Below are positions 19,665 through 64,000 of a stretch of 64,000 nt of DNA, piece by piece (within the stretch, counting starts at the first letter, position 1; every line of letters begins with the position of its first letter). The stretch comes from an uncultured Candidatus Saccharibacteria bacterium (GTDB lineage Bacteria > Patescibacteriota > Minisyncoccia > Phycocordibacterales > UBA2100): contig CAYYEX010000002.1 in the NCBI GenBank assembly GCA_964471165.1, positions 124,965-188,964 on the forward strand, written 5' to 3'. The notes beneath the pieces were generated by a model. The model was given only the letters and a program-made list of their open reading frames with translations, did not search any database and was not told the origin of the DNA. A program made the position numbers and the translations under genes.

Positions 19665-19723
19665 GTGACCTTATGACGCTAGCCCGGACTACGATACCTC
19701 AACGCAAACAAAGGCATCGTCCC

Positions 19724-20293: not shown

Positions 20294-20302
20294 AATTAAA
20301 CT

Positions 20303-20339: not shown

Positions 20340-20341
20340 TG

Positions 20342-20839: not shown

Positions 20840-20867
20840 ACTTTATATTCTATCACGGGGCTCCCGA

Positions 20868-21129
20868 ACGGAGAGGATTAGGCCAAACGCTAAATACAAA
20901 AAGCCGGAGTGTATTCCGGCTTTTTGTATTCTGTGCGCAGGAGAGGACTCGGCCAAGCGCTCGAAAAATTCTCGTCAGAACTTTTCTCCGCTCGGCCCTG
21001 CTCAGGCATCCCCGTCTACTGACGGGTCCCCAGCCTTCACTTTCTCGCCCTCTCGCTGCTGCCGCAAATGAAAAGACCGGGATATATCCCGGTCTTTTCA
21101 TTTGAGTGCGCAGGAGAGGACTCGAACCT
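20868..21129. repeat. tandem duplication of [terminator hairpin + tRNA-Leu 3' end]: 19-nt gtgcgcaggagaggactcg at 20933-20951 and 21106-21124, degenerate third copy at 20868-20886
   Basis: exact 19-nt repeat; hairpins aaaaagccggagtgtattccggcttttt (20896-20927) and aaaagaccgggatatatcccggtctttt (21071-21100). Confidence 0.7.
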
Positions 21130-21191
21130 CCATGCCCTTAACGGGCGCTACCACCTCAAGGTAGTACGTCTACCAATTTCGCCACCTGCGC
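21107..21191 (-). tRNA. tRNA-Leu (anticodon GAG)
   Basis: rc reads GCGCAGG-TG-GCG-AAATTGGTAGACG-T-ACTACC? with anticodon stem-loop CTACC-TTGAGGT-GGTAG, long variable arm, T-arm GGAGG-TTCGAGT-CCTCT, acceptor GCGCAGG/CCTGCGC. Confidence 0.8.
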
Positions 21192-21514
21192 GTCCGGGCC
21201 ATTCTAGCAGAGCGTAAAAAAATGGCGAGCGATGGCGCATTTTGCTTGACCCCCACTATCTCAGCGTGTATACGAAAGACTGGCGAAACAAAATGGGTTG
21301 TGTCGAATGATAGTCATCAGCGTAATGAGTGGAATTGCGTTATACCTGCTCGTCCGGCGCTTTGTCGTCGATTCGTATCGCAAAATCGCTGCGGTATGCA
21401 GCTTCTGCACCGGCGCAGGTATTGAGATGTGGTTCACACAAGACTTCTTTTCGGTTATCGTCATAAAGCTCGTTCACTAGGTCCCGCTCCGCATTCTCTG
21501 CGGACGGGGCCGTC

Positions 21515-22636: not shown

Positions 22637-22694
22637 TTTTCTTCGCGCTCTCGCGTAGCGGGCGCGATTCTGCTATAACTCGTATGTTCAGTGA

Positions 22695-22767
22695 TGGCGA
22701 CTATGGTGTAACGGTTAACACTGGAGCTTGTGGAGCTCTCGATTCGGGTTCGATTCCCGATAGCCGC
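22695..22767 (+). tRNA. tRNA-His (anticodon GTG) with genomically encoded G-1
   Basis: G-1 then GCGACTA acceptor (one A:C mismatch with TAGCCGC), D-arm GTGT-AACGGTTA-ACAC, anticodon stem GGAGC/GCTCT loop TTGTGGA, T-arm TCGGG-TTCGATT-CCCGA, discriminator C. Confidence 0.65.
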
Positions 22768-22809
22768 CCAATGAGGTTTTATCAAAGAGCCGAACCCGCG
22801 CCGCCCAAC

Positions 22810-33211: not shown

Positions 33212-33817
33212 ATGGTGCCACTTCCCGCGATATATGAACGAGCCAAAATTGGCTCGATACAGTCGAAAAACGGTGAATCGTTCGATATTGTGATAGGGCT
33301 CGATACAGCACTTGTTGATCAGCTTATTGCATACTCAGTCGATGCAAGCGACGTTGATTTACAAAACAACACGTCAGACCGAAAGCGCTTTGGTGAGGGC
33401 TCATACGAAGAATGGTTCAACAAAGAGCGCACGCCATATGCATTGGTCAGTAATGACGGAACACTCGCCGCGCTCGCATGGTTCGGGCCAAAGCCAATCG
33501 GTCGCAAGTCATTGCGCTATCTGAGCGAGGCGGAGCTAAGAGAAGAGTATTCGCAGGCCAAAGGGGATGCCCATACAATTGTGTATCGGTCGTATAATCC
33601 ATTTCGAGGCCAGGGACTTATGTCGGGGTTCATGCGCTTCGCAATAGACGACTATCGAGCACGACATCCTGGCGCGAAGCTCTGGGCGGGAGTGAGCACG
33701 CACAATCAAGCGAGTGTCGCGCTGGCTACCAAGCTGGGATTTGTATATTCAGAGGAATACTCCGATCCGGAACAAGACTGGGCACTTATGTTTGAAAATG
33801 ATGTATGGCGCGCGTAA
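33212..33817 (+). CDS. GNAT-family N-acetyltransferase (tentative)
   Basis: C-terminal acetyl-CoA-binding-like RGQGLMSGFMRFAIDD...LWAGVSTHNQASVALATKLGF. Confidence 0.4.
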   Translation: MVPLPAIYERAKIGSIQSKNGESFDIVIGLDTALVDQLIAYSVDASDVDLQNNTSDRKRFGEGSYEEWFNKERTPYALVSNDGTLAALAWFGPKPIGRKSLRYLSEAELREEYSQAKGDAHTIVYRSYNPFRGQGLMSGFMRFAIDDYRARHPGAKLWAGVSTHNQASVALATKLGFVYSEEYSDPEQDWALMFENDVWRA

Positions 33818-34956
33818 AACTTAGCGAATATTCAGCAAAGAAGATTCTACTCGGGGACACCTACACTGGTGTGAGCCTGCGCTCCGGCGCTCTTTCGATT
33901 CCGGCAGGACGATGGGTTGCAAAAGTGGACCAGGGCGTGAAAAAGCGTTTCAAGCAAGGCTTGGTCGTCGTGGATAAAAGTGAAAGTGAAATCAAGCAAG
34001 CGATTGAACAGTGGGAGCAGAAAGGTTTCTCCCAATTTATTCTTGATCCGCTCGTCGCACATGATTCAAAAGATGCCCGGTATATTTCATTTGAACGCGT
34101 GCGTGAGGGGATTCGTGTTTTGTTTTCGAGAGATGGAGGTATTGATATAGAAGAGCACCCCGAAGCGGTCACGCAGTATTTGATGAAAGTTGAGAGCGAT
34201 ATAGCCCACGTGGCTTCCGAAACTGGTGTTCCTGAATCGTTTCTCTCGCGTGTGTACCGCGCGTTTCAAAAAGAATTTTTTGCCTTTCTCGAAATCAATC
34301 CGCTCCTCGTTATAAACGGTACTGCAGAGTTATTGGACGCTGCCGCATTGGTTGACAGCGCAGGAGAGTTCTTCGTGCGAGATTCCTGGACGGGGGATGA
34401 TGTCATCAAACAGAGAGCGAAACATCCCGCCGAAACGAGAGTTGAAAAACTTGCTGCAACTACCCCCGCATCTCTCAAGCTTTCGGTTATCAATCCAGAT
34501 GGAGCGCTTTTTTTTCTGCTCTCCGGCGGTGGAGGCTCCATCGTGATTGCTGACGAAGTTCAGCTCCGAGGTGCGGGGGCGCTTTTGGCAAACTATGGCG
34601 AATATAGCGGGGGGCCGACACGCGAGGAAACCTATTTGTACGCAAAAGAAATTCTTGGACTCCTCATTGATTCCTCGGCAAAGAAAAAAGCACTGGTAAT
34701 CGCGGGTGGGGTGGCGAACTTTACCGATGTTAAAAAAACATTTCTCGGCATCATTGACGCGCTTGCCGAGGTGGCACCCAAGCTGCGCGCAGCTGGTGTG
34801 CGCGTGTTCGTGCGACGCGGTGGTCCCAACGAAGCCGCTGGCCTCAAACTCATGCAGGACTTTCTCGAAAAAGAAGCCCTCCAGGGTGCTGTGTATGGTT
34901 CGGACACCGTTATTACGCGCGCAGTGGAAGACGCGATTACATTTATACAGGTATGA
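33805..34956 (+). CDS. aclB: ATP-citrate lyase beta subunit (ATP-grasp, SucC-like)
   Basis: near-collinear matches to human ACLY N-terminal half: FAFLEINPLLV, ASLKLSVINPDGALFFLLSGGGGSIVIADE, ANYGEYSGGPTREETYLYAKEILGLL, LVIAGGVANFTDVKKTF, VFVRRGGPNEAAGLKLM. Confidence 0.9.
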   Translation: MARVKLSEYSAKKILLGDTYTGVSLRSGALSIPAGRWVAKVDQGVKKRFKQGLVVVDKSESEIKQAIEQWEQKGFSQFILDPLVAHDSKDARYISFERVREGIRVLFSRDGGIDIEEHPEAVTQYLMKVESDIAHVASETGVPESFLSRVYRAFQKEFFAFLEINPLLVINGTAELLDAAALVDSAGEFFVRDSWTGDDVIKQRAKHPAETRVEKLAATTPASLKLSVINPDGALFFLLSGGGGSIVIADEVQLRGAGALLANYGEYSGGPTREETYLYAKEILGLLIDSSAKKKALVIAGGVANFTDVKKTFLGIIDALAEVAPKLRAAGVRVFVRRGGPNEAAGLKLMQDFLEKEALQGAVYGSDTVITRAVEDAITFIQV

Positions 34957-36743
34957 CGATTCTTGAACGCATTCGAAACGGAGAGGACGGCATCCTCGTC
35001 ATAGGGAATCACCCAGGTATTGTGCAATCAATTCTCGATTTTGATGCCCTCTCTGGGAAGGGGCGCGCATCTGTCGTTGGCATTATTGCAGGCACGCGAA
35101 AAGCCCAAAAGTTTTTCTTTGGGGGCACAGAAGTGTTGATTCCGTGTTTTTCTAACGTCGCAAAGATTCCGAAAGACGTTGGCGGGAGAGTTAAGTGGAT
35201 GCTCAACGCGCAGTCGGGGCGTCGCTCATTCTCCTCGACGGTGGGATTTTTTGAAGCATTTCCCGATGCGCTTGGCGGGCACCTGTTTGCAGAAAACATA
35301 CCCGAAAGTCATGCAACGGAACTCATTGCACGTTTCGGTAACCGCTACCTGATTGCAGGGCCATCTGGGGTGGGATTGCTTGTGTCTCATTGTCTAAAAC
35401 TTGGCGCTATTGGCGGAACCGATGTTGCACAGATTATGGCGGGAAAGCTCGCTACGGAGGGTTCTGTGGCAGTTGTGTCCACCTCAGGTGGTATGACCAA
35501 CGAGCTCATCCGCGCCGTGTCACTTGCAGGCAAGCGGGTCTCATTTTCACTCTCAATAGGCGGAGACCGATTTCCTATCACGTCGCTCTCGCAGGTGCTC
35601 TCGCTTGCCGAAGAAGACGCAGCCACGAAAGCAATCGTGTATTTCGGCGAGCTCGGCGGGTCAGATGAGTACGAGATTGTTGAGCTTCTCAAAGCGGGAA
35701 AACTGACCAAGCCGATTATTTGTTACGTCGCAGGGGTAATCGACGAGGCGTTCGACGAACGAATGCAGTTCGGTCATGCCAAGGCGCTGGTTGCCCATAA
35801 AGATGAAAGTGCGCGCGCCAAACGTGAAGCGCTCAACGCCGCTGGTGCAATTGCGCCGGAATCATTCCCGCTTTTTCTCAATGCGCTAGCTGACCTGCCG
35901 CTGCCAGAGATTCGTGATACCGTCATTGATACAAAAGCATTTATGGACAGAAAGCCAAGTATTCTCTCATCACGAAAAATTGTCGACCTCGATACGGTTC
36001 CCGTATTTGTGAAGGACGGGGTACTTGTTACTCAGCCACAAAATGCATTTGCAGCTGCAGCGCTCAAGGCATTGCTGGGGCGCGAAGTTTCCGCCGAGAC
36101 TGCTGCGTTTGTCGAAAACATTTTTGAACTCCTCATCGACCACGGTGGTCACGTCTCCGGTGCCGTAAACACCATGGTCACCGCACGCGCGGGCAAAGAC
36201 ATGGTCTCATCCCTCGCCGCAGGGCTCCTCACGGTAGGTCCCCGTTTCGGGGGAGCGGTGAACGAAGCTGCGCGAACTTGGCATGATGGCGTAGTCTCAG
36301 GTGTTGAAGCATCGGTCTATGTGGAGGCGCAGAACAAAGCAGGGAAGCTCCTCGCGGGCATCGGGCATCGCAAGTATCGTGTTGGCATTCCTGACCCGCG
36401 CGTGTCCGCGCTTTCTGAGTTTGCGGCGCTGCTTACAAAACACCCACATTACGACTTTGCGCGAAGCATTGAACTGGTCACAACAGCAAAGAATGGAAAT
36501 CTCATTTTAAATGTGGATGGCATTATGGCCGCGCTCTTGCTCGATTTCCTCGCTGAAAAGGATGGCCTCAGTAGTCAGGAGATTACAGAGCTCCTGGATG
36601 CGGAGTTTTTCAATGCGTTGTTTATCATCCCGCGCTCAGTTGGATTCATTGCACACTTCATCGAACAAAAAAGAAACGACGAAGGACTGTTCCGTTTACC
36701 AGACGATTTACTGTTTGAACGTGATAACGAAGCAGGGGAATAA
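34953..36743 (+). CDS. aclA: ATP-citrate lyase alpha subunit (CoA-binding, phosphohistidine and citrate-synthase-like domains)
   Basis: STSGGMTNELIRAV, catalytic His motif FGHAKAL, ELLIDHGGHVSGAVNTMVTARAGKDMVSSLAAGLLTVGPRFGGA, GIGHRKYRVGIPDPRVSAL, LILNVDGIMAALLLDFL, GFIAHFIEQKR matching ACLY/AclA. Confidence 0.9.
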   Translation: MTILERIRNGEDGILVIGNHPGIVQSILDFDALSGKGRASVVGIIAGTRKAQKFFFGGTEVLIPCFSNVAKIPKDVGGRVKWMLNAQSGRRSFSSTVGFFEAFPDALGGHLFAENIPESHATELIARFGNRYLIAGPSGVGLLVSHCLKLGAIGGTDVAQIMAGKLATEGSVAVVSTSGGMTNELIRAVSLAGKRVSFSLSIGGDRFPITSLSQVLSLAEEDAATKAIVYFGELGGSDEYEIVELLKAGKLTKPIICYVAGVIDEAFDERMQFGHAKALVAHKDESARAKREALNAAGAIAPESFPLFLNALADLPLPEIRDTVIDTKAFMDRKPSILSSRKIVDLDTVPVFVKDGVLVTQPQNAFAAAALKALLGREVSAETAAFVENIFELLIDHGGHVSGAVNTMVTARAGKDMVSSLAAGLLTVGPRFGGAVNEAARTWHDGVVSGVEASVYVEAQNKAGKLLAGIGHRKYRVGIPDPRVSALSEFAALLTKHPHYDFARSIELVTTAKNGNLILNVDGIMAALLLDFLAEKDGLSSQEITELLDAEFFNALFIIPRSVGFIAHFIEQKRNDEGLFRLPDDLLFERDNEAGE

Positions 36744-43114: not shown

Positions 43115-45910
43115 ATGTCCTCTGGACCGGAAGGGAAGTTCAAGAAGCAGAGTCGCAACAGGCTCACCCTAAAATCTGCCATCGCAGCACTTGCGATTAT
43201 TGGTGCGCAACCCGCAGAGGCGCAGTATACGAAGGAGCAAGACACACAATCCCAAACTTTGCGCGACGTTCCGAAGGCGAATATCGACCAATCGGGGGCT
43301 CGTATTCGAGAATCATTTGCGCAGCACAAGAGGGGTATCGAGAGACTTCGTAAGTATTTTGGCGCCGATGATCCTATCGTGAAGGAAGAGATGCATACGC
43401 TGGAGCTCACGGAGCCGCTATTGCAAGACGGGCGATATATACAGGGCGTGATAGAGATTGAACGCAAAGGTGGAAAACTGCATCAAATCGTCGGCTCTAC
43501 ACACCCGGACGTAGTGATGGACGCGCCAAGGCTCGCGAAGATTCTTGAGCGTATACCGGATGAGATAGTCGGACATTACAGAATGAACGGCTCTGATTTG
43601 AGTGAAGATGCGAGATACTCCTACCATCGGACGGGAGTCGTCGAGCTCGCACAGAGCCTTTCTGAACGCGGGATTATTCTCTCTGGCGAAGAATTGAATC
43701 GAGTGCTGGACATCAGGGTTGATGTACCTGACATTTCCGAGACGTTGACGCGCCTGCAATCAGAGGGGGGTCAGTTTCTGAGCATCACCGAAGTACTGAA
43801 AAAGATACGGGATAAATATTTCGATCCAAGTGCTCTGAGTGACCCTGAATTTGTTCAGGGCCTCATTGACCTCGGCAAATCAGATATCTCTTTAGGTGAG
43901 CTCAGCAGCGCACCTGATGAGAAGTTTAAGTCTCGGATCGTCGAAGCGGTACGTGATCCGGTGTTCGTAAAAACCTTGATTGAGTTGAGGAAAATGAAAA
44001 TGCCGATGTGGAGCTCAGACATGCTCTCAGTTGCGCCAGAAGTCTATCGCAGCCCTTCGTATCTCGGCAATATGCGCATCGCATTGGAAAAGAAAGTTAG
44101 TTTTCTCAGTGCTCGCATGAATGAGCCAGCCATGGCACAGGAGGGTCTTGCGACCCTTCTTTTGTCAGCGGATAAGGACCATGCGAGCGATGTTTTCGAT
44201 GCTGCGAGAAAGTACGGCAGTGATCCGGTTGTGTGGCAGCGTGCCATAGAGTCAGCTTCGAAGCACAAAGACGACGCGCGCTACATGACACTGTTCTACC
44301 AACTGGATTCGGATCGCATAAGGAACGATGAGTACATGGCGCGTGTGGATGCTCACATGCGCGACCCGGAAAACCGCAAGACGTTTGATAAGTACTTGGC
44401 GCGGTTCGAGATAGACACCATATACGCCCGAGAAATCGGAGGTATCAATCCGAAGGATGCGCACATCAACGAATATCGCAGGGCGCTGGAGCGACATCAA
44501 AGTGACCCCGTGATGATGCAGATACTGTCGCTGTACCATTTTCGAATACTTCGCGGACCGATTTTGCGAATGAACGAATTGCACGACGGTCGACCTGAAC
44601 TGCGTCTCGAGCAGCTGAAAGATATCGATACTAAAACGCTACTCGACGTCATGGTGGTGGGGGGAGCAGATGCCTATCTATCAACGTTTCGATTGATCTA
44701 TAACGGCAACGGGCATACGGGAAGTGCGCTGAAGCATACTTTCCTTTCTAAGGTTCGCACCGAGTACGGCTCGTTGCATTCATTTTTTCGTGAAACGAAG
44801 CCCAGTGAAAAGACTTTCGGATCGCTGCTGGAGCTCCTGTCGCAAAATAATCTAATAGACACTTTTTTGTCCGACATCGGTACCCTTGAGCAACAGCAAC
44901 AAGTGCTGAGGGAATTCCTTTTTGATTCCTCAAAAGGAATGTCGGAGACCCAAGCGCTCGCGCTCGACGACTTGTTGCACTCGACTAAGAACGAGTCAGT
45001 GAGGAATTTCGTATTTAATTCTGTCCGTGATTTGCGCGACAAAAGCATGAATAATCGCCCAAAGTATATTGCGGACTTGTTAATTGCAGAATACTTCAGA
45101 GATATACGCAGCGTGCCTTTGTGGGCGAAGGAGAGTATCGAACGATACGGTGCTCTATTCCCAGATGTTAGACAGATTGAGGAAGGGTCCGTATTTCGAG
45201 TCGAGAATGGAGTATCTACAAATACACAACTTCATTTCTTCTATGACGACAGAGGTCCGAGTAAACCCGAACATACGTGGGACGGACACATGTCATTTAG
45301 GAATTTTATCCAAAGTTTGGGAGGTTCGGTCACGTGGGACGCTGCGGGAGTGATTCAAAGTATTGTCTCTGGAAAAGGAATTAAGATAACTGACGAAGGG
45401 GATTACGTAAAAATACAGAAGACTGATACGAAATCGAAAAAGGAAGTCGTTATGTTTGCAAATAAGCCGGATCGCAAGGATGAGAATGTGGCAAAGATTC
45501 AGTCAGACCTCATGACGCAATTTAAGCCGCAGACAGTCGTTCACAGGGGGCACAGTTACCATGCCCCGAAAACCATTATGTTGCTCAATGGTGATATCGC
45601 ACTGGTGAACCTTGGTTCGTGCGGTGGCGCTAAGAATATTTCTGACGTGCTCGAAAAAGCGCCGTCGGCACAAGTCATGGCGACTAAGGGTGTGGGGACA
45701 ATGCTTGTTAACGACACGCTTATAACCGCCATCGATAAGACGCTCATGTCGCAAGGTCGGGTCAATTGGGATACGCTGCGTGGGCAGCTTGATTCAGAGT
45801 TCAAAAGGCGCGGTGGTGATGCGAATGAGCGATGGGGGCACTACCAACTCCCGCATCAGAATAGGACCGCGCATTTGATTGCTGCATTAAAGAAACTACC
45901 TAAGGACTAG
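43115..45910 (+). CDS. large secreted alpha-helical hypothetical protein (931 aa)
   Basis: signal peptide LTLKSAIAALAIIGAQPAEAQ; no recognisable catalytic motif. Confidence 0.65.
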   Translation: MSSGPEGKFKKQSRNRLTLKSAIAALAIIGAQPAEAQYTKEQDTQSQTLRDVPKANIDQSGARIRESFAQHKRGIERLRKYFGADDPIVKEEMHTLELTEPLLQDGRYIQGVIEIERKGGKLHQIVGSTHPDVVMDAPRLAKILERIPDEIVGHYRMNGSDLSEDARYSYHRTGVVELAQSLSERGIILSGEELNRVLDIRVDVPDISETLTRLQSEGGQFLSITEVLKKIRDKYFDPSALSDPEFVQGLIDLGKSDISLGELSSAPDEKFKSRIVEAVRDPVFVKTLIELRKMKMPMWSSDMLSVAPEVYRSPSYLGNMRIALEKKVSFLSARMNEPAMAQEGLATLLLSADKDHASDVFDAARKYGSDPVVWQRAIESASKHKDDARYMTLFYQLDSDRIRNDEYMARVDAHMRDPENRKTFDKYLARFEIDTIYAREIGGINPKDAHINEYRRALERHQSDPVMMQILSLYHFRILRGPILRMNELHDGRPELRLEQLKDIDTKTLLDVMVVGGADAYLSTFRLIYNGNGHTGSALKHTFLSKVRTEYGSLHSFFRETKPSEKTFGSLLELLSQNNLIDTFLSDIGTLEQQQQVLREFLFDSSKGMSETQALALDDLLHSTKNESVRNFVFNSVRDLRDKSMNNRPKYIADLLIAEYFRDIRSVPLWAKESIERYGALFPDVRQIEEGSVFRVENGVSTNTQLHFFYDDRGPSKPEHTWDGHMSFRNFIQSLGGSVTWDAAGVIQSIVSGKGIKITDEGDYVKIQKTDTKSKKEVVMFANKPDRKDENVAKIQSDLMTQFKPQTVVHRGHSYHAPKTIMLLNGDIALVNLGSCGGAKNISDVLEKAPSAQVMATKGVGTMLVNDTLITAIDKTLMSQGRVNWDTLRGQLDSEFKRRGGDANERWGHYQLPHQNRTAHLIAALKKLPKD

Positions 45911-53915: not shown

Positions 53916-54520
53916 TAGTGGTCCATATTCCAACATGAAATGAATGGGGTGGACAAACGTCATCTCAATTGACTCCCAGGGGTCAGTGAAGTATTCTGCC
54001 CCGGTAACTTGGGCTATGGATTTCGGCTTGAAATGAGGCCGCAATTCAGACAAAAGTAGTCACAAGTTATCCACAAAACGGAGTTTTGCTCAGACAGGCG
54101 TATTCAGGCTTCCAGTATATAATTGTGCGGACGCATATTCCATGCGTCGCACAGGGAAGCGAAAGCGCTCGCTGTGTCGCTCTTTGACATTTAAATATTG
54201 AATACAAATTCTGGTGATCGCATCACCACCTTTCGTGACGCCTGAATATATGTACGGGTGCTCATGAATTTCGAATTTCGTCGTTACTGATTCTCCCGAC
54301 AGGATTGAAACGCTGTACGACACTTCCTTCTCGCTGCTACTCTCTTGGCTCCGCGTCGACTAATTAGCAAGGGGCTTAGAGTTAGCAAATACATTATTAG
54401 TGGACACTCTATTAATAGAGGGTTCGCAAAAAAACGTACGGGTATTCACGTCGAATGAATACGTGTACGGTTCCGTCCATTCTTTTTGGATGCGCGGAAT
54501 ACAAAGGTCAAACAATAACT

Positions 54521-57500
54521 ATGAGTAAAGCATTAGCAACAAAGAATGTTGCGGCAGTGCTCTTGGGCATCGGTATGATCCTTTCGGTTTTCGCTTTCGC
54601 TACACCAGCTAAGGCAGACACCGCATCGGACCTCCAGGCTCAGATCAACGCATTGCTCGCACAAATCTCTGCACTTCAGGGCGGCGCTTCAAGCGCAGCT
54701 TGCTTCACGTTCACTCAGAACCTCAAATTGGGTTCTAAGGGAGCAGAAGTAATGAACTTGCAGAAATTCCTTAACAGCATGTCCGACACCAAGGTATCCG
54801 TAAGCGGAGCTGGCTCACCGGGCAACGAGACATCGACATTCGGTCCGGCTACGAAAGCAGCTGTGATCAAGTTCCAGAACAAGTATGCAGCTGACATCCT
54901 CACTCCGAACGGACTCACTGCAGGTAATGGTAACTTCTTCGCATCGTCACGCGCTAAGGCAAACAGCCTCTGCGTAACGACACCGACAACGCCGACGACT
55001 CCGGGTACAACCCCAGGCACCCTCGCGGTGACTGCAGGTTCACAGCCGGCTAACTCGCTCGCACCAGCAGGTTCTGCTCGTGTCCCATTCACTAACTTCA
55101 CACTCACGAACACTTCGGGGTCTGCAGTTACAGTGACTGGTGTCACAGTAACCCGCACGGGTCTCGCAGCTGATGGCGCATTCGCAGGTGTAGTTCTTCT
55201 CGATCAGAACGGTCTCCAGATTGGAACACCGCGCACGTTCGACACGAACCACATGGCGACAATTGGCGAAACGATGACACTTCAGGCTGGTCAGTCAATG
55301 ACCTTCACTGTTGCTGGAAACATGGCTACTCCTCTCACCAGCTACGCTGGTCAGGTAGCTGCTCTCCAGGTCACCGCAATCCAGACGTCGAGCACAATCT
55401 CCGGTTCTCTCCCAATCTCGGGTGCTAACCAGACGATCAACTCTTCGCTCGCTATCGGTACGGCAACAGTTATGACATCGTCGTTCGACCCTGATTCCAA
55501 TCAGACGAAGAACATCGGTGACACAGCTGTGAAGTTCTCAGGTGTCCGCATCACTGCGGGTTCAGCTGAAGACGTCCGCCTCTTCTCAGTTCGATGGCGC
55601 CTGAACGGCTCCGCGAGCTCGGGAGACATCTCCAACGTTATGACAGTCATCAACGGCACGAGCTACCCAACGGTTCTCTCTGCTGATGGCCGCTACTACA
55701 CGACTACGGTCTCAGGTGGCGTTCTCATGACGAAGGGCAACTCTGCCGATGTATACGTACAGGGTGACATCACGGGTACGAACTCGAACTCTCGAGTAAT
55801 CGAATTCGACATTGATCGTCAGTCAGACATCTACATCGTCGGTCAGACATACGGCTACGGCATCACGCCAACCGCGTCTGAAACACTTACGGCAGCAGCT
55901 ACGGGCAACCACGGCTCTACGTTCGTAGGTTCTGGCAGCGTTTCTTCGCAGCCGTTCTTCCAGGGCTCAACCGTTAACGTAATCGGTTCGTCGGTAACGA
56001 CAATCGCTCGCGCAACGGAAGTTCCTGCAGCGAACATTGCAATCAACGTCCCAGGCCAGGTACTCGGCGGCTTCGTAGCAGACATCAAGGGTGAAGCACT
56101 CACGATTCAAACTCTGAGCGTTTACGCTGTCGGTGTTGCTACAGGAACAACCAACCAGCTCACAAACGTCACCCTCGTCAACGACGCAGGTGTCGTAGTA
56201 GCAGGTCCGGTTGACGCATCTGCAGGCTTGATCACGTTCAACAACTCGATCACGCTCTCGTCAGGTCGTCATGTCTACACCATCAAGGGAACTGTCCCAA
56301 CAGGTACGTCTAACGGCGGTACCTTCACCCTCAACACGACTCCGTCGGGTTGGACAGGTGTAACGGGTCAAACAACAGGAAACACAGTAACGATTTCGCA
56401 GGGGAACTTCACCATGAACACGATGACTGTTCGCGGTGCACGACTCAACATCACAGCAGCAGCTCAGCCTGCAGCTCAGACAATCGTTGCCGGTGGTTCT
56501 GCAGTCCTTCTTGCGAACATCCAGCTCGACGCATCGCAGTCGGGTGAAGACATCCGCATGAACCAGCTTCCGGTCAACTTCACGAACGTCACAGGCGCAA
56601 GCTCGTGCCAGCTCTGGAATGGATCGACAGCAATCAACACCGGTTCCAACACCGTTAACCCGGCTGGTACTGGTATCACGAACTTCACGTTCGATAACTC
56701 ACTCACAATTCCTAAGGGAACTGTTGTGACGTTGTCACTGAAGTGCAACCTCTCGTCGTCAGCAACCGGTACATACATCACCGGTGTTATCACGAGCGGC
56801 ACACAGACGTACACCGCAACCGGCGTACAGTCTGGCAACTCGTTGACTAACAACACCACTCTCACTGCAACTACCTCGAATAGCGGTACGCAGACGATTG
56901 GTACGAGCTCGCTCGCAGTTACCACATCTCCGTCATCTCCTTCATACGCATATGCGTCTGGTGGTACTACGAATGTGACAATCGGCGCGCTCCAGCTCCG
57001 AGCATCTGGTGAAGACCAGACACTCACTGAGCTTGGTCTCGTTGGCTCTGCTTCAATCGACTCAGACGTCCTCCAGGCTACAATCTGGAACGGCGCAACT
57101 CAGGTTGGAACAGTTACCTTCGTTTCTGGCACCACAGCCGCAACGTCGACACTCTCGACACCGGTAGCGCTTGCTAAGGACACGGATGTTACCCTCACAA
57201 TCAAGGTCAACGTTGCTAACGTTGGTGTTGGTCAGTCAGGAACTCCGGGTGACCTCGTTCAGGTTAACTTCCAGGGCGCTAAGTCCACGGGTGTAAACTC
57301 TGGCAACACGATCTACGCAACCGGCAGCTCGTCTGTCGCCGGCGTACGCATCGAACGCTCTTACCCAACGCTCGCTCTCGTAAGCCTCGGCTCAACGGGT
57401 GCAGCAGACGGTAAGCTCATCCGCTTCTCTGTCACTGCAAACGCAGCTGGCACGATCGGCGTTGAGCAGTTCGCCTTCTCGATCGCAAGCTCGACAGGCG

Positions 57501-57913
57501 TAACGGTCAACAACATCATTCTCTACGCTTACACAGATTCTGGCTTCTCAAGCCCAGTATCAAGCGCAGCTTCTGGTCAGTTGAACGCAACAGGTATGTT
57601 TGCTAGCGGCTCGGTTAAGATCACCACGGACAACGTCACGGGTGGTGTTCTCCAGGTTCCAGCTGGTCAGACCTACTACTTCGAACTCCGCGCTACTGTA
57701 GCGGGTATCCAGACAGGCTCGTCAATCACGACGACTCTCCTCGGCGACTCTGCTTACCAGCGCGCAGCGACAAGCACCCTCAACTCTGCACGTAACTTCG
57801 TATGGTCGCCAAACTCGACGACCACTACATCGTTCGCTGGCTCTGACTTCTCGTCAGGCTTCGGAGTCCCAGGCCTCCCAGCTTCGGGTCTCACGCAGAC
57901 GCGAAACCAGTAA
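54521..57913 (+). CDS. giant Thr/Ser/Gly-rich cell-surface protein with N-terminal peptidoglycan-binding domain (S-layer/adhesin-like)
   Basis: signal anchor MSKALATKNVAAVLLGIGMILSVFAFATPAKA; PG_binding_1-like GSKGAEVMNLQKFL...FGPATKAAVIKFQ...GLTAGNG; >1000 aa beta-rich low-complexity ectodomain. Confidence 0.7.
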   Translation: MSKALATKNVAAVLLGIGMILSVFAFATPAKADTASDLQAQINALLAQISALQGGASSAACFTFTQNLKLGSKGAEVMNLQKFLNSMSDTKVSVSGAGSPGNETSTFGPATKAAVIKFQNKYAADILTPNGLTAGNGNFFASSRAKANSLCVTTPTTPTTPGTTPGTLAVTAGSQPANSLAPAGSARVPFTNFTLTNTSGSAVTVTGVTVTRTGLAADGAFAGVVLLDQNGLQIGTPRTFDTNHMATIGETMTLQAGQSMTFTVAGNMATPLTSYAGQVAALQVTAIQTSSTISGSLPISGANQTINSSLAIGTATVMTSSFDPDSNQTKNIGDTAVKFSGVRITAGSAEDVRLFSVRWRLNGSASSGDISNVMTVINGTSYPTVLSADGRYYTTTVSGGVLMTKGNSADVYVQGDITGTNSNSRVIEFDIDRQSDIYIVGQTYGYGITPTASETLTAAATGNHGSTFVGSGSVSSQPFFQGSTVNVIGSSVTTIARATEVPAANIAINVPGQVLGGFVADIKGEALTIQTLSVYAVGVATGTTNQLTNVTLVNDAGVVVAGPVDASAGLITFNNSITLSSGRHVYTIKGTVPTGTSNGGTFTLNTTPSGWTGVTGQTTGNTVTISQGNFTMNTMTVRGARLNITAAAQPAAQTIVAGGSAVLLANIQLDASQSGEDIRMNQLPVNFTNVTGASSCQLWNGSTAINTGSNTVNPAGTGITNFTFDNSLTIPKGTVVTLSLKCNLSSSATGTYITGVITSGTQTYTATGVQSGNSLTNNTTLTATTSNSGTQTIGTSSLAVTTSPSSPSYAYASGGTTNVTIGALQLRASGEDQTLTELGLVGSASIDSDVLQATIWNGATQVGTVTFVSGTTAATSTLSTPVALAKDTDVTLTIKVNVANVGVGQSGTPGDLVQVNFQGAKSTGVNSGNTIYATGSSSVAGVRIERSYPTLALVSLGSTGAADGKLIRFSVTANAAGTIGVEQFAFSIASSTGVTVNNIILYAYTDSGFSSPVSSAASGQLNATGMFASGSVKITTDNVTGGVLQVPAGQTYYFELRATVAGIQTGSSITTTLLGDSAYQRAATSTLNSARNFVWSPNSTTTTSFAGSDFSSGFGVPGLPASGLTQTRNQ

Positions 57914-58055: not shown

Positions 58056-58895
58056 ATGATGGCCCGCATGAACCGAACCACACTTTCAGCAACTGCATTT
58101 CTGGTGCTCGCCGTTGCAATTATCGCTGCAGGCTACCTGTATCAAAATCGCTCCGACTTACTTGCTCGAATATCGGCCCCAGTGGAAGCCGTTGCCACAT
58201 CCTCACAAAATGCAGCATTCGCAATCACGGGGCAGAATGCCGCAGATGAACGCGGCTCCACCAGCATCATTCCGCTCGCGAGCACCGACGCTTCGATACA
58301 GATGCCGGACTACAAGCGCCCGCTCACGTTTCCAAAAAGCACCACACTCAACGCCGAGGCACAGGCAGCGCTTTTGAAAAGTTATGCAAAAACGCAGGCG
58401 GTCGTTATCAAAGACCCAATGCAGTTCAACGAATGGATTTTCCTCGGCAACGACCATCTCATTGCAGGGAACTTCACAATCGCACAGGAGTACTGGGAAT
58501 ACGCATCACTCCGCTGGCCAACGAACCAGGCATCGTTCAACAACTTGGGCGACCTCTATATGAATTACCTCAAGGACTACCCAAAGGCCGAAAAGAATTG
58601 GTTGCAGGGAATGAAAAACAAATCGAATGACCCCGGTGTATACGCCAACCTCTTCTCGCTCTACTCCAACACTTCGTACAAACCATCAAACACCGCAGCT
58701 GAAGACATTCTCAAAAAGGGAATAGTAGCCAACCCGCGCGCAGTCGACTTGCAGTACTTGCTCGCGCAGTACTACAAAAAGCTCGGCCGCACCGCGGACG
58801 CGCAGGCTATGTTCACAGCAGCCGCGGACAACGCAACGCGCCAAGGTCAGACCGCCCTCGCCGTCCAAATCAAACTCGACGCCGCCAAGAAGTAG
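58056..58895 (+). CDS. membrane-anchored TPR-repeat protein
   Basis: N-terminal TM ATAFLVLAVAIIAAGYLY; TPR-like helical repeats (AQEYWEYASLRWPTNQASFNNLGDLYMNYLKDY...). Confidence 0.6.
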   Translation: MMARMNRTTLSATAFLVLAVAIIAAGYLYQNRSDLLARISAPVEAVATSSQNAAFAITGQNAADERGSTSIIPLASTDASIQMPDYKRPLTFPKSTTLNAEAQAALLKSYAKTQAVVIKDPMQFNEWIFLGNDHLIAGNFTIAQEYWEYASLRWPTNQASFNNLGDLYMNYLKDYPKAEKNWLQGMKNKSNDPGVYANLFSLYSNTSYKPSNTAAEDILKKGIVANPRAVDLQYLLAQYYKKLGRTADAQAMFTAAADNATRQGQTALAVQIKLDAAKK

Positions 58896-59060: not shown

Positions 59061-59624
59061 CTACTTGAGACTGAATTTCGTTCGAAGGTGAGAATCTCTC
59101 TCGATCGTATCAGCAATTATGTACAGAACCTCTTTCCCCAAGCCGTAGTCGACTTTTAACAAGGTAATCAATTCTTCACAGTCATATGGAAAAACCCAAA
59201 CCGAATCCTGCAATCTTTCGAAACCAATTTCCACGAGAGTTTTTCTGAGAAGGTGTCGGTGGCCCTTTCTCGCTTCAGCGATGTCGAAAATCACCATTCG
59301 CCACCTTCCATCCCATTTGGCCGGCTTACGTACCACAAAGCTTTTCCGGACTAGGAAAGCACTCCCTTTCGGTGTAATTCGTAAACGCCTTCCGCTGGCA
59401 CCCTCTTCGTAAGAAATCAGGCCCTTCTTCAATAATCGCTGCGAGGCAGTCTCGATAGATTCTTTAGACCTATTTGAATACCGTTTACCGAGGAGTTGAA
59501 GCACGTTTGGCGCTAAGATGGCCAGAGTGAGGACTCCTCCAAGCTCAAGAGAGGAGAGAATCGCATTCTGAAGTTTGGTACGCCTTTCACGCCTCTTCAG
59601 ATTACCCTCCATTGTGGTTCCCAT
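59061..59624 (-). CDS. winged-helix DNA-binding domain fused to a Cas2/VapD-like C-terminal domain (possible PaaX-like regulator)
   Basis: N-terminal wHTH (LLKKGLISYEEGASGRRLRITPKGSAFL); C-terminal WRMVIFDIAEARKGHRHLLRKTLVEIGFERLQDSVWVFPYD parallels the Cas2 signature LVLVTYDIS...RRLAKLLLEYGYRIQQSVFEC. Confidence 0.6.
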   Translation of the reverse strand: MGTTMEGNLKRRERRTKLQNAILSSLELGGVLTLAILAPNVLQLLGKRYSNRSKESIETASQRLLKKGLISYEEGASGRRLRITPKGSAFLVRKSFVVRKPAKWDGRWRMVIFDIAEARKGHRHLLRKTLVEIGFERLQDSVWVFPYDCEELITLLKVDYGLGKEVLYIIADTIERDSHLRTKFSLK

Positions 59625-59657: not shown

Positions 59658-59708
59658 GGGAGGGGATAGCTTGATGAAGGGCTCATGTGTTGGCATACTG
59701 TCCGGGAT

Positions 59709-62700
59709 ATGACTTCTGCACGCTTTGTGCTCGTCTCTCTCCTCGGCGCACTCCTGGTTCCGTATGCTGCATCTGCTGCGACATATGGTGATATTGGTCA
59801 CGACATCTCGTTCCCGGGAAGTGGCTCTATGGCAGCGATGCAGAACCTGGGCAATGGCAACTTTACCCACGGGGCCGCAGTAACCGGCATGGATGTGCGC
59901 ATTTCCACCGCCGCAGGACAAATGATTAAGGCGTTTATTGTTGAATACGCAATTGATGGTGGACAAACCGCACAATACGGGCCTGTTGATTACGTCACGA
60001 CAGTTGACGGGGAACAGGTATATCACTTTGAACTGCCAGCTCCGTTTACGCCTCGCGCCGACCGATGTTACAACCTCCTGTTCTACCAGTTCCTCGATCC
60101 CTCGGGGACAACGTTCTATGGGTGGTCGAATGAAAAATATGTGGCTTCACACGCAGGGTGCGCATTTGGGCGAAACTCAGATGATGTTGCTTACCTAAAC
60201 CAAAACCCTTCACTCAATTATCCCGGGCTTGTCGATTATTCGTTTGTAATTCATGACGACGGTTTTATTCCGCCCCCACAAGAGCCGGTTGTTCCTCTGG
60301 GCAAAACATACGGAAGTCTCGATGCGGATTTTACTTTTGGGGCACAGGGAACGATGGCCGCGGTGCAGAATCTCGGAAACGGAACGTTTTCTGAGGGAAA
60401 TACAGTAACGGGTGTTGATGTGCGTGTGGCGGCAGTGCCGGGTAATATCATCAAAGCTTCGGTTCGTGAGTTTGACTCTGTGGGCAATCAACTAAACGAG
60501 TACTTCCCGCCCGATTATCTGCCAACGGTAGAGGGTGACCACGTGTACAATTTTGATTTTTCAACTACGTTTACTCCCGACCCATCTCATTGCTACCAGC
60601 TGTATTCCTATCAGGCTAACCTTTCGCCATACAGCAGTACGTACTACGGACATTCGAATGATGTGTATGTGGCTTCAAGTACCGGCTGTGTATTTGGACA
60701 GAATAATGATGACCGGGCACATCTCACCCAAAACCCCAGCTTGAACGCTGACGGATATATTGACTACGCATTCCGCATCCACACAAACGGAGCAACCTCT
60801 ACGCCCCCTGCAACCACGACTCCTGCGTGCACGGAGAATTGCTATTCCAACGTGCTGTTCCTGCCCGGTATCAAAGCGAGTCGTCTGTACCATCCACGCG
60901 GACCGAGCTGTGCGGTCGGCGACTGCGAGGATCAGGTGTGGATACCGAACGCGAACAGTGACGTTGAAGACATGTTCCTAAATCCAGATGGCACAAGCGT
61001 GCGACGAGACATTTATACAAAAGATATTCTCGACAAATATCCGGGAGGAGATGTTTACGACTCTTTCTCAAAGTTTATGAATCAAATGGTTGCTTCGAGC
61101 ACCATAAATAAATGGGATTCTGTGCCATACGACTGGCGACTCGATCTTGAGCATGTGGTGAATAATGGCACCTCCATCGACGGACATATTTCATACGTAG
61201 ACAATGCAACATCTTCGTACGTGATTAACAAACTCGTACAGCTCGCGGAAAGTTCAAAAACAGAGAAGGTGACAATTGTTGCCCATTCAAATGGAGGATT
61301 ATTCGCTAAGGTATTGATGAAGAAACTCGACGAGATGGGAAAGGGCGACCTTGTAGATAAAGTCGTATTTGTTGGGGTGCCGCAGTTGGGGACGCCAAAA
61401 GCGATTGCGACATTCCTGCACGGATACGATGAATCCATCCTGCGCGGGGCGGTGCTCAATGAAGCGACCGCGCGAACGTTCGCTGAAAACGCTGCGGGTG
61501 CGTACACGCTTCTGCCATCTAATGCGTACGTCGCAAAAGTCTCGACGCCGACGGTTGAGTTTTCCTCAACTTCAACAGCAGCCCAGACGCTCTTCAGTCA
61601 ATATGGTGCGTCTATTCAGTCGTACCAGACACTGCGGGCATTTCTGCTTGGTTTTGATGGCCGACAGAAGCCCGCGACGAGCGACGTAGATTCACCAAAC
61701 ATTCTGAACTTTGAACTTCTTAACCGAGCGGAGCAACTTCACAGTGAACTTGATTCATGGACACCACCTGCGGGAGTGAAGTTGTATGAGGTGGCGGGGG
61801 TAGGACTGGAAACGCCTTCAGGGATTAAGTACATTGATAGCTGCAAGTTCCATTGCATGTTTGGGGGGCCCAGTCTTTCATATGAGCCAAGCGTTGTATT
61901 TGAGGGCGACGGAACGGTCGTTGAAGCAAGTGCCCACTCGGGAGATGGTGATCAATACTATTTCAATATTAATCGGTACAACGATACAAATGGTGACCTG
62001 CCGTCGGTCGAGCACGGCACAATCATGAGCCCCCACGCAGTCCTCGATTTTGTCGACTGGGTAATTCGTAATGAGCCGATTCGTCCACTCTCAAATACTA
62101 TTTCTCCGACCGCGCCCAGCTTCGCTGGCCAGAAGCGTATTGCACTTCGCATTCACTCACCGGTCTCTCTCGATTTGTACGATGGCCAGGGGCGGCACAC
62201 GGGGGTGGTCCATGCTGCGCTGCCAGACGGCACCCCGATACGATATGTTGAAAACAATATTCCTGGTGCTCACTACGATGAGTTTGGAGAAGTAAAGTAC
62301 GCATTTACGGACGGTTCGATTCCCGTGCATGTTGTGCTTGATGGGCAGGCATCCGGTTTCGTTACCTACGACATTGACGAAATGGTTGGCAACGATGTGA
62401 TAACGACAACATCATTCGTGAATATCCCAGTCGCAACAAGTTCTGTTATTACGATGGACATTACTGATAATATTTCCACAGCGTCTGACCTCCATATCGA
62501 CGAGGATGGTGACGGCCACGCGGAAGCAATTCTAGAACCGGGCGGGATAGTGTTGTTCGATGTAACCGCGCCCACAACCATAGCTTCTACGACAGGACCA
62601 CTCGGTGCTCATAACTGGTATCTTGGTACAACAACCGTTCAGTTGAGTGCGACTGATAATGACGGAGGCTCGGGAGTAAGTGGTACAGTCTTTTCTCTCG

Positions 62701-63293
62701 ACGGTTCACCACTTCAAACGTATTCAAGCCCAATCGTAGTAACTACCGAAGGACTGCATACTTTGCAGTATTATTCGATTGATAACTCGGACAATCGGGA
62801 GGCAACGAGTACTCTTGCGATTAAGATAGACTCGACGGCGCCAGAGGCAAAGCTCTCGGTGAGCATCTCAACAAAAGACCTGCTGGTAGTGGGAGCGGGC
62901 GGAATGGGAACGACCACTGTGACCAAAGATGTGAACGGAAATTACACAGTCACGGACGATGCAGGGCATTCGACAAAACTCTTCTTTACGAAAACGTACA
63001 GCGGAAAAATACTCACATATGCAAAACTCACCGCCGTGCAATACGACAACGCTGCAAAACTCACACTCCCGTCGTCCTCGTTCCTATATGCGTGGGACTC
63101 CACATCGGCGCTCTTGAGCCAAACCATAGCCGCGGACAAGACCTATGCAATTCAGGCGCTCTTCGACAAAAAGAAGAATAAGACGACGGTGGTACTCCTA
63201 AAGAAAGGTCTTTCCATACAGACCCAGGTATTCACAGGATTGCGTATCGTGAAGCTTACGACGGCAAAAGGGGTGGTAGGGTATGAGATATGA
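59709..63293 (+). CDS. giant secreted LCAT/PGAP1-like alpha/beta-hydrolase (phospholipase/acyltransferase) with duplicated N-terminal domains and C-terminal Ig-like domains
   Basis: signal peptide MTSARFVLVSLLGALLVPYAASAA; two ~190-aa tandem homologous domains (…MAAMQNLGNGNFTHGAAVTGMDVR… / …MAAVQNLGNGTFSEGNTVTGVDVR…); LCAT-family YDWR motif (VPYDWRLDLEH) and nucleophile elbow VTIVAHSNGGL; C-terminal Big/Ig-like segment (LSATDNDGGSGVSGTVFSLDGS…). Confidence 0.7.
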   Translation: MTSARFVLVSLLGALLVPYAASAATYGDIGHDISFPGSGSMAAMQNLGNGNFTHGAAVTGMDVRISTAAGQMIKAFIVEYAIDGGQTAQYGPVDYVTTVDGEQVYHFELPAPFTPRADRCYNLLFYQFLDPSGTTFYGWSNEKYVASHAGCAFGRNSDDVAYLNQNPSLNYPGLVDYSFVIHDDGFIPPPQEPVVPLGKTYGSLDADFTFGAQGTMAAVQNLGNGTFSEGNTVTGVDVRVAAVPGNIIKASVREFDSVGNQLNEYFPPDYLPTVEGDHVYNFDFSTTFTPDPSHCYQLYSYQANLSPYSSTYYGHSNDVYVASSTGCVFGQNNDDRAHLTQNPSLNADGYIDYAFRIHTNGATSTPPATTTPACTENCYSNVLFLPGIKASRLYHPRGPSCAVGDCEDQVWIPNANSDVEDMFLNPDGTSVRRDIYTKDILDKYPGGDVYDSFSKFMNQMVASSTINKWDSVPYDWRLDLEHVVNNGTSIDGHISYVDNATSSYVINKLVQLAESSKTEKVTIVAHSNGGLFAKVLMKKLDEMGKGDLVDKVVFVGVPQLGTPKAIATFLHGYDESILRGAVLNEATARTFAENAAGAYTLLPSNAYVAKVSTPTVEFSSTSTAAQTLFSQYGASIQSYQTLRAFLLGFDGRQKPATSDVDSPNILNFELLNRAEQLHSELDSWTPPAGVKLYEVAGVGLETPSGIKYIDSCKFHCMFGGPSLSYEPSVVFEGDGTVVEASAHSGDGDQYYFNINRYNDTNGDLPSVEHGTIMSPHAVLDFVDWVIRNEPIRPLSNTISPTAPSFAGQKRIALRIHSPVSLDLYDGQGRHTGVVHAALPDGTPIRYVENNIPGAHYDEFGEVKYAFTDGSIPVHVVLDGQASGFVTYDIDEMVGNDVITTTSFVNIPVATSSVITMDITDNISTASDLHIDEDGDGHAEAILEPGGIVLFDVTAPTTIASTTGPLGAHNWYLGTTTVQLSATDNDGGSGVSGTVFSLDGSPLQTYSSPIVVTTEGLHTLQYYSIDNSDNREATSTLAIKIDSTAPEAKLSVSISTKDLLVVGAGGMGTTTVTKDVNGNYTVTDDAGHSTKLFFTKTYSGKILTYAKLTAVQYDNAAKLTLPSSSFLYAWDSTSALLSQTIAADKTYAIQALFDKKKNKTTVVLLKKGLSIQTQVFTGLRIVKLTTAKGVVGYEI

Positions 63294-63742
63294 GAGCCTT
63301 CGTTCAGGCGAACTTCTGGAGAGCGCTGCCAGTAGTGGCCGCTGTTGTGGTGTGGGGAATAGGATATATATACATGCATCCGTTGCTTTTTGGACTTTGC
63401 TCTGCGCCGTACGCCGAGGTTGGGTACACAGGTTGTTTGGATTCCACTTTTAGAACCGTTGGGGAACCTGCGGTGGTTTTTGGCAAATGGCTGCTTGCTG
63501 TCGGTGTAATTATGTTTTTTGTTCGGATTCAGATACTCAAGCGCTGGGCAATATTTGCAGCGTTGTTTCTGATTGTCGCTACCGTCCTAATACATACTAG
63601 CCCCACCACATCGGGGTTACCCGGATTGAACGAAAAGTTACTTATGGCTAACGCGCTCGGCATTTTTCTTCTCGTGATTACTCTTGTTTGGATGATTGTC
63701 CACACAGTCATACTCAAACGGAAGACCCGCGTCTCGAAGTGA
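63290..63742 (+). CDS. hypothetical membrane protein (4 TM)
   Basis: ATGA overlap with upstream stop; hydrophobic helices. Confidence 0.5.
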   Translation: MRAFVQANFWRALPVVAAVVVWGIGYIYMHPLLFGLCSAPYAEVGYTGCLDSTFRTVGEPAVVFGKWLLAVGVIMFFVRIQILKRWAIFAALFLIVATVLIHTSPTTSGLPGLNEKLLMANALGIFLLVITLVWMIVHTVILKRKTRVSK

Positions 63743-63811: not shown

Positions 63812-64000
63812 ATGTCGAACAGCAAAAAGAGGAGTGATTCTACGAGAATCTCAACTGCGCCGCGATGGGCGGCGTACGGTGTTATATCAGCATCAATTCT
63901 GTTTATTGCTAGTTATGTTTGTAGAGAATCACTTACTACCTTTGCTTGCGCAAACGATTTGTACACGAGCGGCTACTCTGCATGTCGTAGTAGTGTCGAG
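63812..64000 (+). CDS. partial hypothetical membrane protein (runs off window)
   Basis: MSNSKKRSDSTRISTAPRWAAYGVISASILFIASYV..., no stop before edge. Confidence 0.35.
   Translation, partial: MSNSKKRSDSTRISTAPRWAAYGVISASILFIASYVCRESLTTFACANDLYTSGYSACRSSVE

Follow-up and report, generated by a model that had tools for sequence, protein, structure and literature searches.

An exported multidomain enzyme of the LCAT family in Patescibacteria and the small four-transmembrane protein encoded beside it

To our knowledge, the characterised enzymes of the LCAT family use glycerophospholipids as acyl donors, and transacylation is carried out by both LCAT itself and LPLA2 (group XV PLA2). These two are the closest described counterparts of the gene that we analyse here, which lies at 59709..63293 on the + strand of a 64,000-nucleotide stretch of DNA (hereafter the window; positions 124,965 to 188,964 of contig CAYYEX010000002.1, assembly GCA_964471165.1) from an uncultured Candidatus Saccharibacteria bacterium, and which encodes a multidomain LCAT-like enzyme of 1194 aa that is predicted to be exported. 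Two further systems invite comparison. One is Tle4 (TplE, PA1510; PDB entry 4r1d), a phospholipase effector of the type VI secretion system (T6SS) that is paired with the immunity protein Tli4, a soluble periplasmic protein. The other is the pair of lipases BlEst2 from Bacillus licheniformis and EstA3 from Thermoanaerobacter (6wpx), proteins of ~450 aa in which the hydrolase is joined to an adjoining C-terminal beta-sandwich, and for which we know of no partner with four transmembrane segments.

Much of bacterial diversity belongs to the Candidate Phyla Radiation (CPR), or Patescibacteria. These bacteria reportedly have no complete lipid synthesis and probably take lipids from other cells; their membranes are ordinary acyl-lipid membranes that are unusually rich in lysolipids, for which phospholipase A has been named as a possible source (PMC7242380). 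The passages on lipid supply in the description of the CPR predator Vampirococcus lugosii propose that a secreted phospholipase provides it with host lipids, the logic being that a CPR organism without phospholipid synthesis exports the enzyme, damages host membranes and gains lipids; our enzyme is likened to that phospholipase by proposed role alone, and those passages name neither its family nor a partner gene (PMC8080830). In the literature, we found nothing relevant that links LCAT-family proteins or PF02450 with CPR bacteria or Patescibacteria. What is new here is the architecture of the enzyme, the size and phyletic concentration of the Patescibacteria subfamily to which it belongs, and a conserved, unannotated partner protein with four transmembrane segments.

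Both the Pfam criterion and the fold place the enzyme in the LCAT family. Its LCAT/LPLA2-like alpha/beta-hydrolase domain occupies residues 376-800 (60834..62108; all features of the enzyme lie on the + strand, and all residue numbers are counted from the methionine at 59709). This region contains a match to the Pfam LCAT model PF02450 that scores 61.3 bits, the gathering score being 21 (E=1.3e-16), extending over residues 425-741 and over profile positions 38-355 of 392, whereas the matches of the enzyme to PGAP1, DUF676 and DUF7379 all fall below their Pfam thresholds. An AlphaFold2 model of residues 376-950, built from an alignment of 37 family sequences, has a pLDDT of 90.7 and a pTM of 0.92 and gives an alpha/beta-hydrolase fold. 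When the model was compared with the PDB using Foldseek, the ten best matches were all to LPLA2 or LCAT, with E-values from 2e-14 to 3e-10 and template-modelling (TM) scores, normalised to the target, of 0.59-0.63; LPLA2 (4x92) is the best of them (E=2e-14, TM score 0.63), and LCAT (4x96) is matched with E=1.7e-11. Next in the ranking come Tle4 (E=8e-10) and then BlEst2 (E=9e-9, over ~640 columns), and ordinary family I lipases rank below all of these. A first-pass annotation, made from the letters of the sequence, had proposed an LCAT-like catalytic core on the basis of two motifs, AHSNGG and YDWR, and had named the alpha/beta-hydrolase fold and the spatial assembly of the triad as points to be checked; the core, the motifs and the fold are borne out, and triad assembly has indirect support.

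In the profile alignment, the motifs PYDWRL, xHSxG, G-P..G and GxGxxT are collinear with those of human LCAT. The YDWR motif (residues 474-477, 61128..61139) aligns to PYDWRL of the human protein, and the nucleophile elbow AHSNGG (residues 525-530, 61281..61298), which contains Ser527 (codon 61287-61289), aligns to GHSLG, which we take to be the catalytic-serine motif of LCAT, with the serine presumably numbered 181. A GDGTV motif with the candidate catalytic residue Asp734 (61905..61919, aspartate codon 61908-61910) lies inside the Pfam match, and His769 (62013..62015) is the candidate catalytic histidine. Across the alignment of 37 sequences, which are 31-58% identical, the invariant positions include F-x-P-G, which follows the first strand, as well as Y-D-x-R, H-S-x-G-G with Ser527, G-D with Asp734, and His769; the tryptophan of YDWR is nearly invariant. 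In the model, Ser527 is flanked by a strand and a helix, Asp734 comes straight after a beta strand, and His769 is in the loop that follows the last strand of the core, so that the three residues are placed as expected for the standard alpha/beta-hydrolase arrangement and form a candidate catalytic triad. The model also contains an insert of ~85 residues that separates the first strand from YDWR and, after G-P..G, a helical insert of ~100 residues. To judge from their modelled positions, these two inserts appear to sit where the cap or lid and the membrane-binding parts of an LCAT-family enzyme would be expected.

The enzyme thus resembles LPLA2 and LCAT in its PF02450 assignment, in its best structural matches, in its collinear motifs, in its conserved serine, aspartate and histidine, and in being exported, the likeness being drawn from sequence and model. 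It differs from them in being bacterial (Patescibacteria), in being three times larger and in sharing just 15-17% of its residues with them; in the parts that flank the hydrolase, with a pair of rare beta domains ahead of it and, behind it, a fixed beta-sandwich, then an OmpL47-type domain and finally a C-terminal domain; and in its setting, which has a partner gene for a protein with four transmembrane segments and no apolipoprotein or lysosomal context. BlEst2 and EstA3 share with it the combination of a hydrolase and a C-terminal beta-sandwich, but the structural score is lower than for LPLA2 and LCAT, and neither has N-terminal modules.

The gene that follows the enzyme gene was overlooked in the first-pass annotation. 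It encodes a protein of 150 aa with about four transmembrane segments (63290..63742, +), and its ATG overlaps the stop codon of the enzyme gene (ATGA). We find that this protein is a conserved partner of the enzyme. In a profile search of the 62 Patescibacteria-type loci whose sequence continues for 500 nt or more downstream, an open reading frame (ORF) of the partner family follows the enzyme gene directly and on the same strand in 40, and the same profile matches one ORF only within the whole window. The grouping is also obtained independently of the profile: 35 of 41 downstream ORFs cluster by pairwise phmmer. Searched against the protein database, the partner profile recovers 54 stand-alone proteins of 92-150 aa, none of them with a Pfam domain and all unnamed or 'hypothetical', apart from one with a generic JGI label. 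We also made the test in reverse. Each of the four partner proteins that we looked up has a gene with the Pfam LCAT domain (encoding 815-1152 aa) ending 1 nt upstream, and the neighbourhoods of these four pairs are otherwise unrelated.

Members of the partner family are typically ~120-150 aa long with 3-4 transmembrane segments, and they share a basic N-terminus, two conserved cysteines in the first loop, a nearly invariant tryptophan after the second transmembrane segment and a basic C-terminus. The first loop, with its conserved cysteines, is predicted to face outward. No fitting family for the partner was found in Pfam, in NCBIfam, in a profile search of the PDB sequences or with PADLOC; 3 of the 35 members matched DUF202 (E~1e-3), a result that we regard as noise. 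A lipase with its Lif foldase (families I.1 and I.2) was considered as a model for the pair and rejected, as the foldase is a single-pass protein of ~340 aa whereas the partner has 120-150 aa and 3-4 transmembrane segments; family I lipases, moreover, match the catalytic domain only weakly in Foldseek. For the loci that have no partner gene, we considered whether the conserved downstream ORFs of ~165 aa might be an alternative partner; these encode ribosomal protein L10, the enzyme gene in many such loci standing directly upstream of rplJ. We also note that the next ORF in the window, from 63812 to 64000 (+), runs past the window's end and into locus L001 from 14128 onward, where it appears to reach into the gene called at 14506-14961, a call that may be truncated. 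It encodes an N-terminal transmembrane segment, a cysteine-rich loop and more transmembrane segments, and in a single-sequence search its similarity to the partner profile is marginal (E~1e-4).

The unit that is conserved across the enzyme family is the catalytic domain together with the beta-sandwich that follows it, which we find in 38 of 39 database relatives, all of them proteins of 670-1400 aa; for nearly all of the large relatives, precomputed annotations list PF02450. A scan of species-representative genomes gave 91 loci encoding a relative, of which we analysed the best 80. In 72 of these 80 the family is present at ~24-45% identity, and nearly all of the 72 come from metagenome-assembled genomes (MAGs) with Patescibacteria titles, which include Parcubacteria/Paceibacterota and Moranii-, Kaiser-, Nomura-, Taylor-, Zambryski-, Yanofsky-, Magasanik- and Falkowbacteria; the few other labels among the 72 possibly result from mis-binning. 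The remaining eight loci belong to other phyla (for example Paenibacillus and Neobacillus) and encode relatives of 23-30% identity. The family is present in at least ~70 species-level Patescibacteria genomes. Until now, its members have been annotated only as 'hypothetical' or, for some of them by JGI, as generic carboxylesterase. The modules that flank the core vary: N-terminal extensions measure 150-740 aa, with pectate-lyase-type beta-helix modules (PF13229/PF05048) in several members, and the C-termini are of several classes.

The chromosomal position of the gene is recurrent. The ribosomal protein gene rplJ lies within ~3.5 kb downstream in 17 of the best 80 loci, as well as on the contig of the window and in two further loci, and base composition is ordinary. 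The recurrent proximity to rplJ and the ordinary base composition together point to a vertically inherited chromosomal gene, not a mobile cassette. In distant Patescibacteria (L032, L036, L042, L051, L063, L065, L068 and others, and L001 at 17215-17709), we repeatedly observe the LCAT-like gene just upstream of rplJ-rplL, which encode L10 and L7/L12; its position in the chromosome is thus conserved.

The enzyme is encoded by one unbroken ORF of 1202 aa at 59685..63293 on the + strand. The in-frame methionine at position 9 of this ORF, at 59709, is the start taken by the first-pass annotation and gives the 1194-aa protein. Neither this start nor the one at 59685 is preceded by a well-spaced Shine-Dalgarno sequence. 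The start at 59709 yields a signal peptide equal in length to that of the orthologue P0002, and either of the two may be the true start. The identical protein is called on contigs of three independent assemblies or runs, one of the contigs being 298 kb long, and the gene is therefore not an assembly artefact. Counted from 59709, the N-terminus reads MTSARFVLVSLLGALLVPYAASA, followed by ATYG; by inspection, it resembles a Sec-type signal peptide (residues 1-23, 59709..59777) with an A-x-A cleavage site, cleavage falling after A-S-A. The enzyme is accordingly a predicted Sec-exported protein, and hydrophobic, signal-peptide-like N-termini occur in 32 of the 39 family members. The mature enzyme is acidic and has a mass of ~126 kDa, and in its C-terminus we found neither an LPXTG motif nor a transmembrane segment. 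The single large secreted protein proposed earlier is thus upheld, as is the order of its domains, with the signal peptide followed by two N-terminal domains, the catalytic domain and then beta-rich C-terminal domains.

Between the signal peptide and the catalytic domain lie two copies of one domain, at residues 24-199 (59778..60305) and 200-367 (60306..60809), the second of which contains two invariant cysteines. Aligning residues 26-185 with residues 201-361 gives 50% identity (E=7e-50) and a repeat period of ~175 aa, so that the tandem duplication reported in the first-pass annotation stands, while the unit of ~190 aa given there is too long. A Thr/Pro-rich linker with two cysteines joins the second copy to the catalytic domain. 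The orthologue P0002 likewise has two copies. The second copies of the two proteins are 68% identical to each other, and the other pairs of copies are 41-51% identical; since the second copies are the most alike, the duplication predates the split of these two genomes. A word-indexed search with the second copy alone missed even the parent protein in the database, and we therefore relied on HMMER, run exhaustively over 1.84 billion representative proteins, which found the domain in about seven of them (six with E<=1e-10, a seventh with 2.3e-10). In two of these seven, P0041 and P0056 (~746 aa), the domain fronts another body, which has no LCAT domain and no Pfam match, and we therefore regard it as a portable module. 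These two exported proteins (locus L085, 285-2525) have a middle part in which, by eye, the segments CGCALTS and YGHFIVLE suggest a putative papain- or C39-like Cys...His pattern, and this is followed by a beta-rich region.

The alignment of the N-terminal domain has two invariant cysteines and the motifs QNLGNGxF and VTGxDxR. An AlphaFold2 model from six sequences is all-beta with a pLDDT of 60.9, and in searches of PDB and viral structures it gives weak jelly-roll matches (VP2 of infectious bursal disease virus (IBDV), a Klebsiella phage tailspike, CocE and phage fibre tips; E ~1e-4 to 5e-4, TM score <=0.42). The domain is thus probably jelly-roll-like and all-beta, and a putative binding role for such a module is reasonable. 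Lectin activity, suggested earlier for the copies, would at most be a candidate function, and with a model and matches of this quality we assign the domain to no family.

The family-conserved beta-sandwich (residues ~805-950, 62121..62558) is all-beta, and we take its joint modelling with the hydrolase, which gave the pTM of 0.92, to mean that it packs against the hydrolase. It is followed by an OmpL47-type beta-sandwich domain, an immunoglobulin (Ig)-like surface-protein domain at residues 971-1040 (62619..62828), identified by NCBIfam NF047446 (E=7e-18; score 64.9 bits, cutoff 40). The full-length OmpL47 equivalog NF047441 fails with 37 against 250, so that one domain is shared with Leptospira OmpL47, and this domain is found in a subset of the relatives only. 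The C-terminal Ig-like domains of the first-pass annotation are accordingly present as beta-sandwich modules. A final domain of 150 aa (residues 1045-1194, 62841..63290) has counterparts only in P0005 and P0021, in part of P0007, and in L005. By eye, about 10 of the 39 members, including this enzyme (63230-63290), end in a strand motif resembling G-L-x-(I/V)-x-x-L-x-T-x-x-G-x-(V/I)-x-x-x-Y; the C-termini of other members show a TDAQxLIDMLxxLL helix, an amphipathic Trp-rich helix or a PxKF/MBG_2 domain.

From these observations, we favour, with moderate confidence, an exported interfacial phospholipase A or transacylase that works together with a four-transmembrane partner in the processing or harvesting of lipids. 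The parts of this reading with direct support are the ORF, the domains, the fold, the conserved triad residues, the export signal, the family distribution and the gene pairing; the lipid substrate, the choice between hydrolysis and transacylation, the role of the partner and the biological purpose are what we infer. The enzyme would act at a lipid-water interface, where Ser527, as the nucleophile, would take over an ester-bound acyl chain from a glycerophospholipid of the membrane and so form an acyl-Ser527 intermediate. Passing the acyl chain to water would amount to phospholipase A activity and would leave a lysolipid and a fatty acid, while passing it to an acceptor alcohol would be transacylation. 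The beta-sandwich beside the hydrolase is a fixed part of the enzyme, and the N-terminal beta domains and C-terminal Ig-like domains would be exchangeable modules for surface binding or spacing. The partner, made together with the enzyme, most likely has its place in the membrane of the producer, where it would dock the enzyme or shield the membrane from it. The purpose would be the processing or harvesting of lipids of neighbouring or host cells, and we favour this role because CPR bacteria reportedly lack lipid synthesis. The role of host- or competitor-targeting effector, suggested in the first-pass annotation, would be plausible.

Several observations weigh against this reading. The identity to LPLA2 and LCAT is low, as given above; a phmmer search of the whole enzyme against the PDB sequences returned no match, and the family profile matched them only weakly, with Tle4 at the top (E=0.0027) and LCAT at E~0.3. 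Because identity is low and these sequence matches are weak, the substrate class rests on fold and family and not on close homology. The fold search also matches ordinary lipases and esterases, among them BlEst2 and family I.5 lipases. The partner is missing from 22 of the 62 loci, about a third, and is therefore not obligatory. Finally, the lipid deficit is one reported for CPR bacteria generally, and our analysis covered 64 kb of this particular genome.

The main rival is that the pair is an antibacterial toxin with its immunity protein, in which a Tle4-like phospholipase would lyse competitor or host cells and the four-transmembrane protein would guard the membrane of the producer; the chemistry would be the same and the purpose another. 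Tle4 is both among the best structural matches and the first in the profile search of PDB sequences, it shares with our enzyme a related alpha/beta-hydrolase fold, the motifs FxPGI and VxHSxGG and an adjacent, presumably co-expressed gene, and the overlapping reading frames of the enzyme and partner would suit a toxin and its antidote. Families of immunity genes often show extra copies without a toxin gene. Tandem extra copies of the partner gene are indeed present in L007, L018, L022, L044 and the P0002 locus, and no second LCAT gene stands beside them. We nonetheless consider this rival unlikely. The recurrent position near rplJ and the wide vertical distribution are unlike those of a variable cassette, and about a third of the loci (22 of 62) have no partner gene. 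The extracytoplasmic loops of the partner are short, ~15-30 residues as estimated from the alignment, and thus small for the task of blocking an enzyme of 126 kDa. The partner has no similarity to Tli4 or to known immunity families, the profile search of PDB sequences having given no match, and PADLOC has no match for either the enzyme or the partner. The Tle4-Tli4 system as such is ruled out by its context, since no T6SS genes were noted among the genes called within ~10 kb on either side, the enzyme has a Sec signal, and its partner is of a different kind, an integral protein with four transmembrane segments; the gene for the enzyme is also vertically inherited near rplJ, unlike that of Tle4.

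A second alternative keeps an active exported esterase but gives it a substrate other than phospholipid, such as triacylglycerol, wax esters, polyhydroxyalkanoate, cutin-like polyesters or acylated cell-wall polymers, which it would degrade in nutrient scavenging while the beta domains bind the polymer. The low identity to LPLA2 and LCAT leaves room for such a substrate, and the fold search returns triacylglycerol lipases, BlEst2 and the polyhydroxybutyrate (PHB) depolymerase PhaZ7. Pectate-lyase-like beta-helix modules, which head several relatives, typically bind polysaccharides, and the carboxylesterase label that JGI gives to some members would also fit. LPLA2 and LCAT are, however, the best and most complete matches, the collinear motifs, PYDWRL among them, are specific to LCAT, and the Pfam LCAT score is well above its threshold where those of PGAP1, DUF676 and DUF7379 are below theirs; taken with the use of glycerophospholipids by the characterised members of the family, as far as we know, this makes a non-phospholipid substrate rather improbable. 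A surface adhesin or structural protein without catalysis, for which the hydrolase fold would be only a scaffold, an idea that draws on the large size, the many beta-sandwich surface modules and the neighbouring giant surface-protein genes, is very improbable, because the invariance of the serine, aspartate, histidine, FLPG oxyanion-region motif and Y-D-x-R in 37 sequences that are otherwise only 31-58% identical argues for selection on catalysis.

Returning to the favoured reading of an interfacial phospholipase A or transacylase with its partner, we can extend it, tentatively and with low confidence, to a lipid-acquisition device of Parcubacteria-type CPR cells. The variable binding modules would place the enzyme on a neighbouring or host cell, where it would strip or transfer the acyl chains of foreign phospholipids and make lysolipids, and the partner would receive the products or insert them into the CPR membrane, or would shield that membrane.

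Genes called within ~10 kb on either side of the enzyme gene include those for RecA, FtsK, surface proteins and ribosomal protein L10. A divergently transcribed gene at 59061..59624 (-) encodes a protein of 187 aa with a PaaX_M (Cas2-fold) domain (Pfam PF20803, E=5e-21; 75 bits against 24), for which the PaaX equivalog TIGR02277 fails (score 34, cutoff 264.55), as do the Cas2 models, which stay below threshold. The first-pass annotation had tied the enzyme to this gene as a small nuclease-like regulator. We reject it as a functional partner, as it is not conserved with the enzyme: it stands beside the enzyme gene in 2 of 80 other loci and in a syntenic close relative, in which the housekeeping neighbours are conserved too.

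Upstream on the + strand are genes for a Thr/Ser-rich exported protein of 1152 aa with a marginal PG_binding_1 match (54455-57913) and for a tetratricopeptide repeat (TPR) protein of 279 aa (58056-58895). At least one of these two genes is found again ahead of the LCAT-like gene in L010, L016, L017, L021 and L069, with both present in L017, L010 and L021, and the P0002 locus has genes that match in size and order. These genes may belong to a larger surface-protein gene cluster, or the arrangement may be simple synteny. Elsewhere in the window, two ORFs of ~1000 aa (3999-7121 and 43115-45910, both +) have no Pfam match at E<=1e-5, and the several giant genes of the window probably encode surface proteins. 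Six tRNA genes lie at 7169-22768, with no other Rfam family at gathering score and with several aminoacyl-tRNA synthetase genes nearby, an ordinary housekeeping context. A gene at 34953-36743 (+), preceded by one at 33805-34956 (+), encodes a protein of 596 aa with CoA-ligase and citrate-synthase C-terminal domains, an architecture of the ATP-citrate-lyase or citryl-CoA type; a central-carbon enzyme of this sort would not be expected in a reduced CPR genome.

Specialists will not be surprised to find a lipase exported by CPR cells, and if the enzyme is an ordinary exported lipase then the present analysis is a routine improvement of annotation. It nevertheless defines two families that were without annotation, the rare N-terminal domain and the four-transmembrane partner. 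The conserved two-gene module also makes the question of lipid acquisition in CPR bacteria directly testable, as the pair can be cloned. If the enzyme and its partner were indeed a lipid-acquisition device, they would explain the origin of CPR membranes and the richness in lysolipids that is reported for them.

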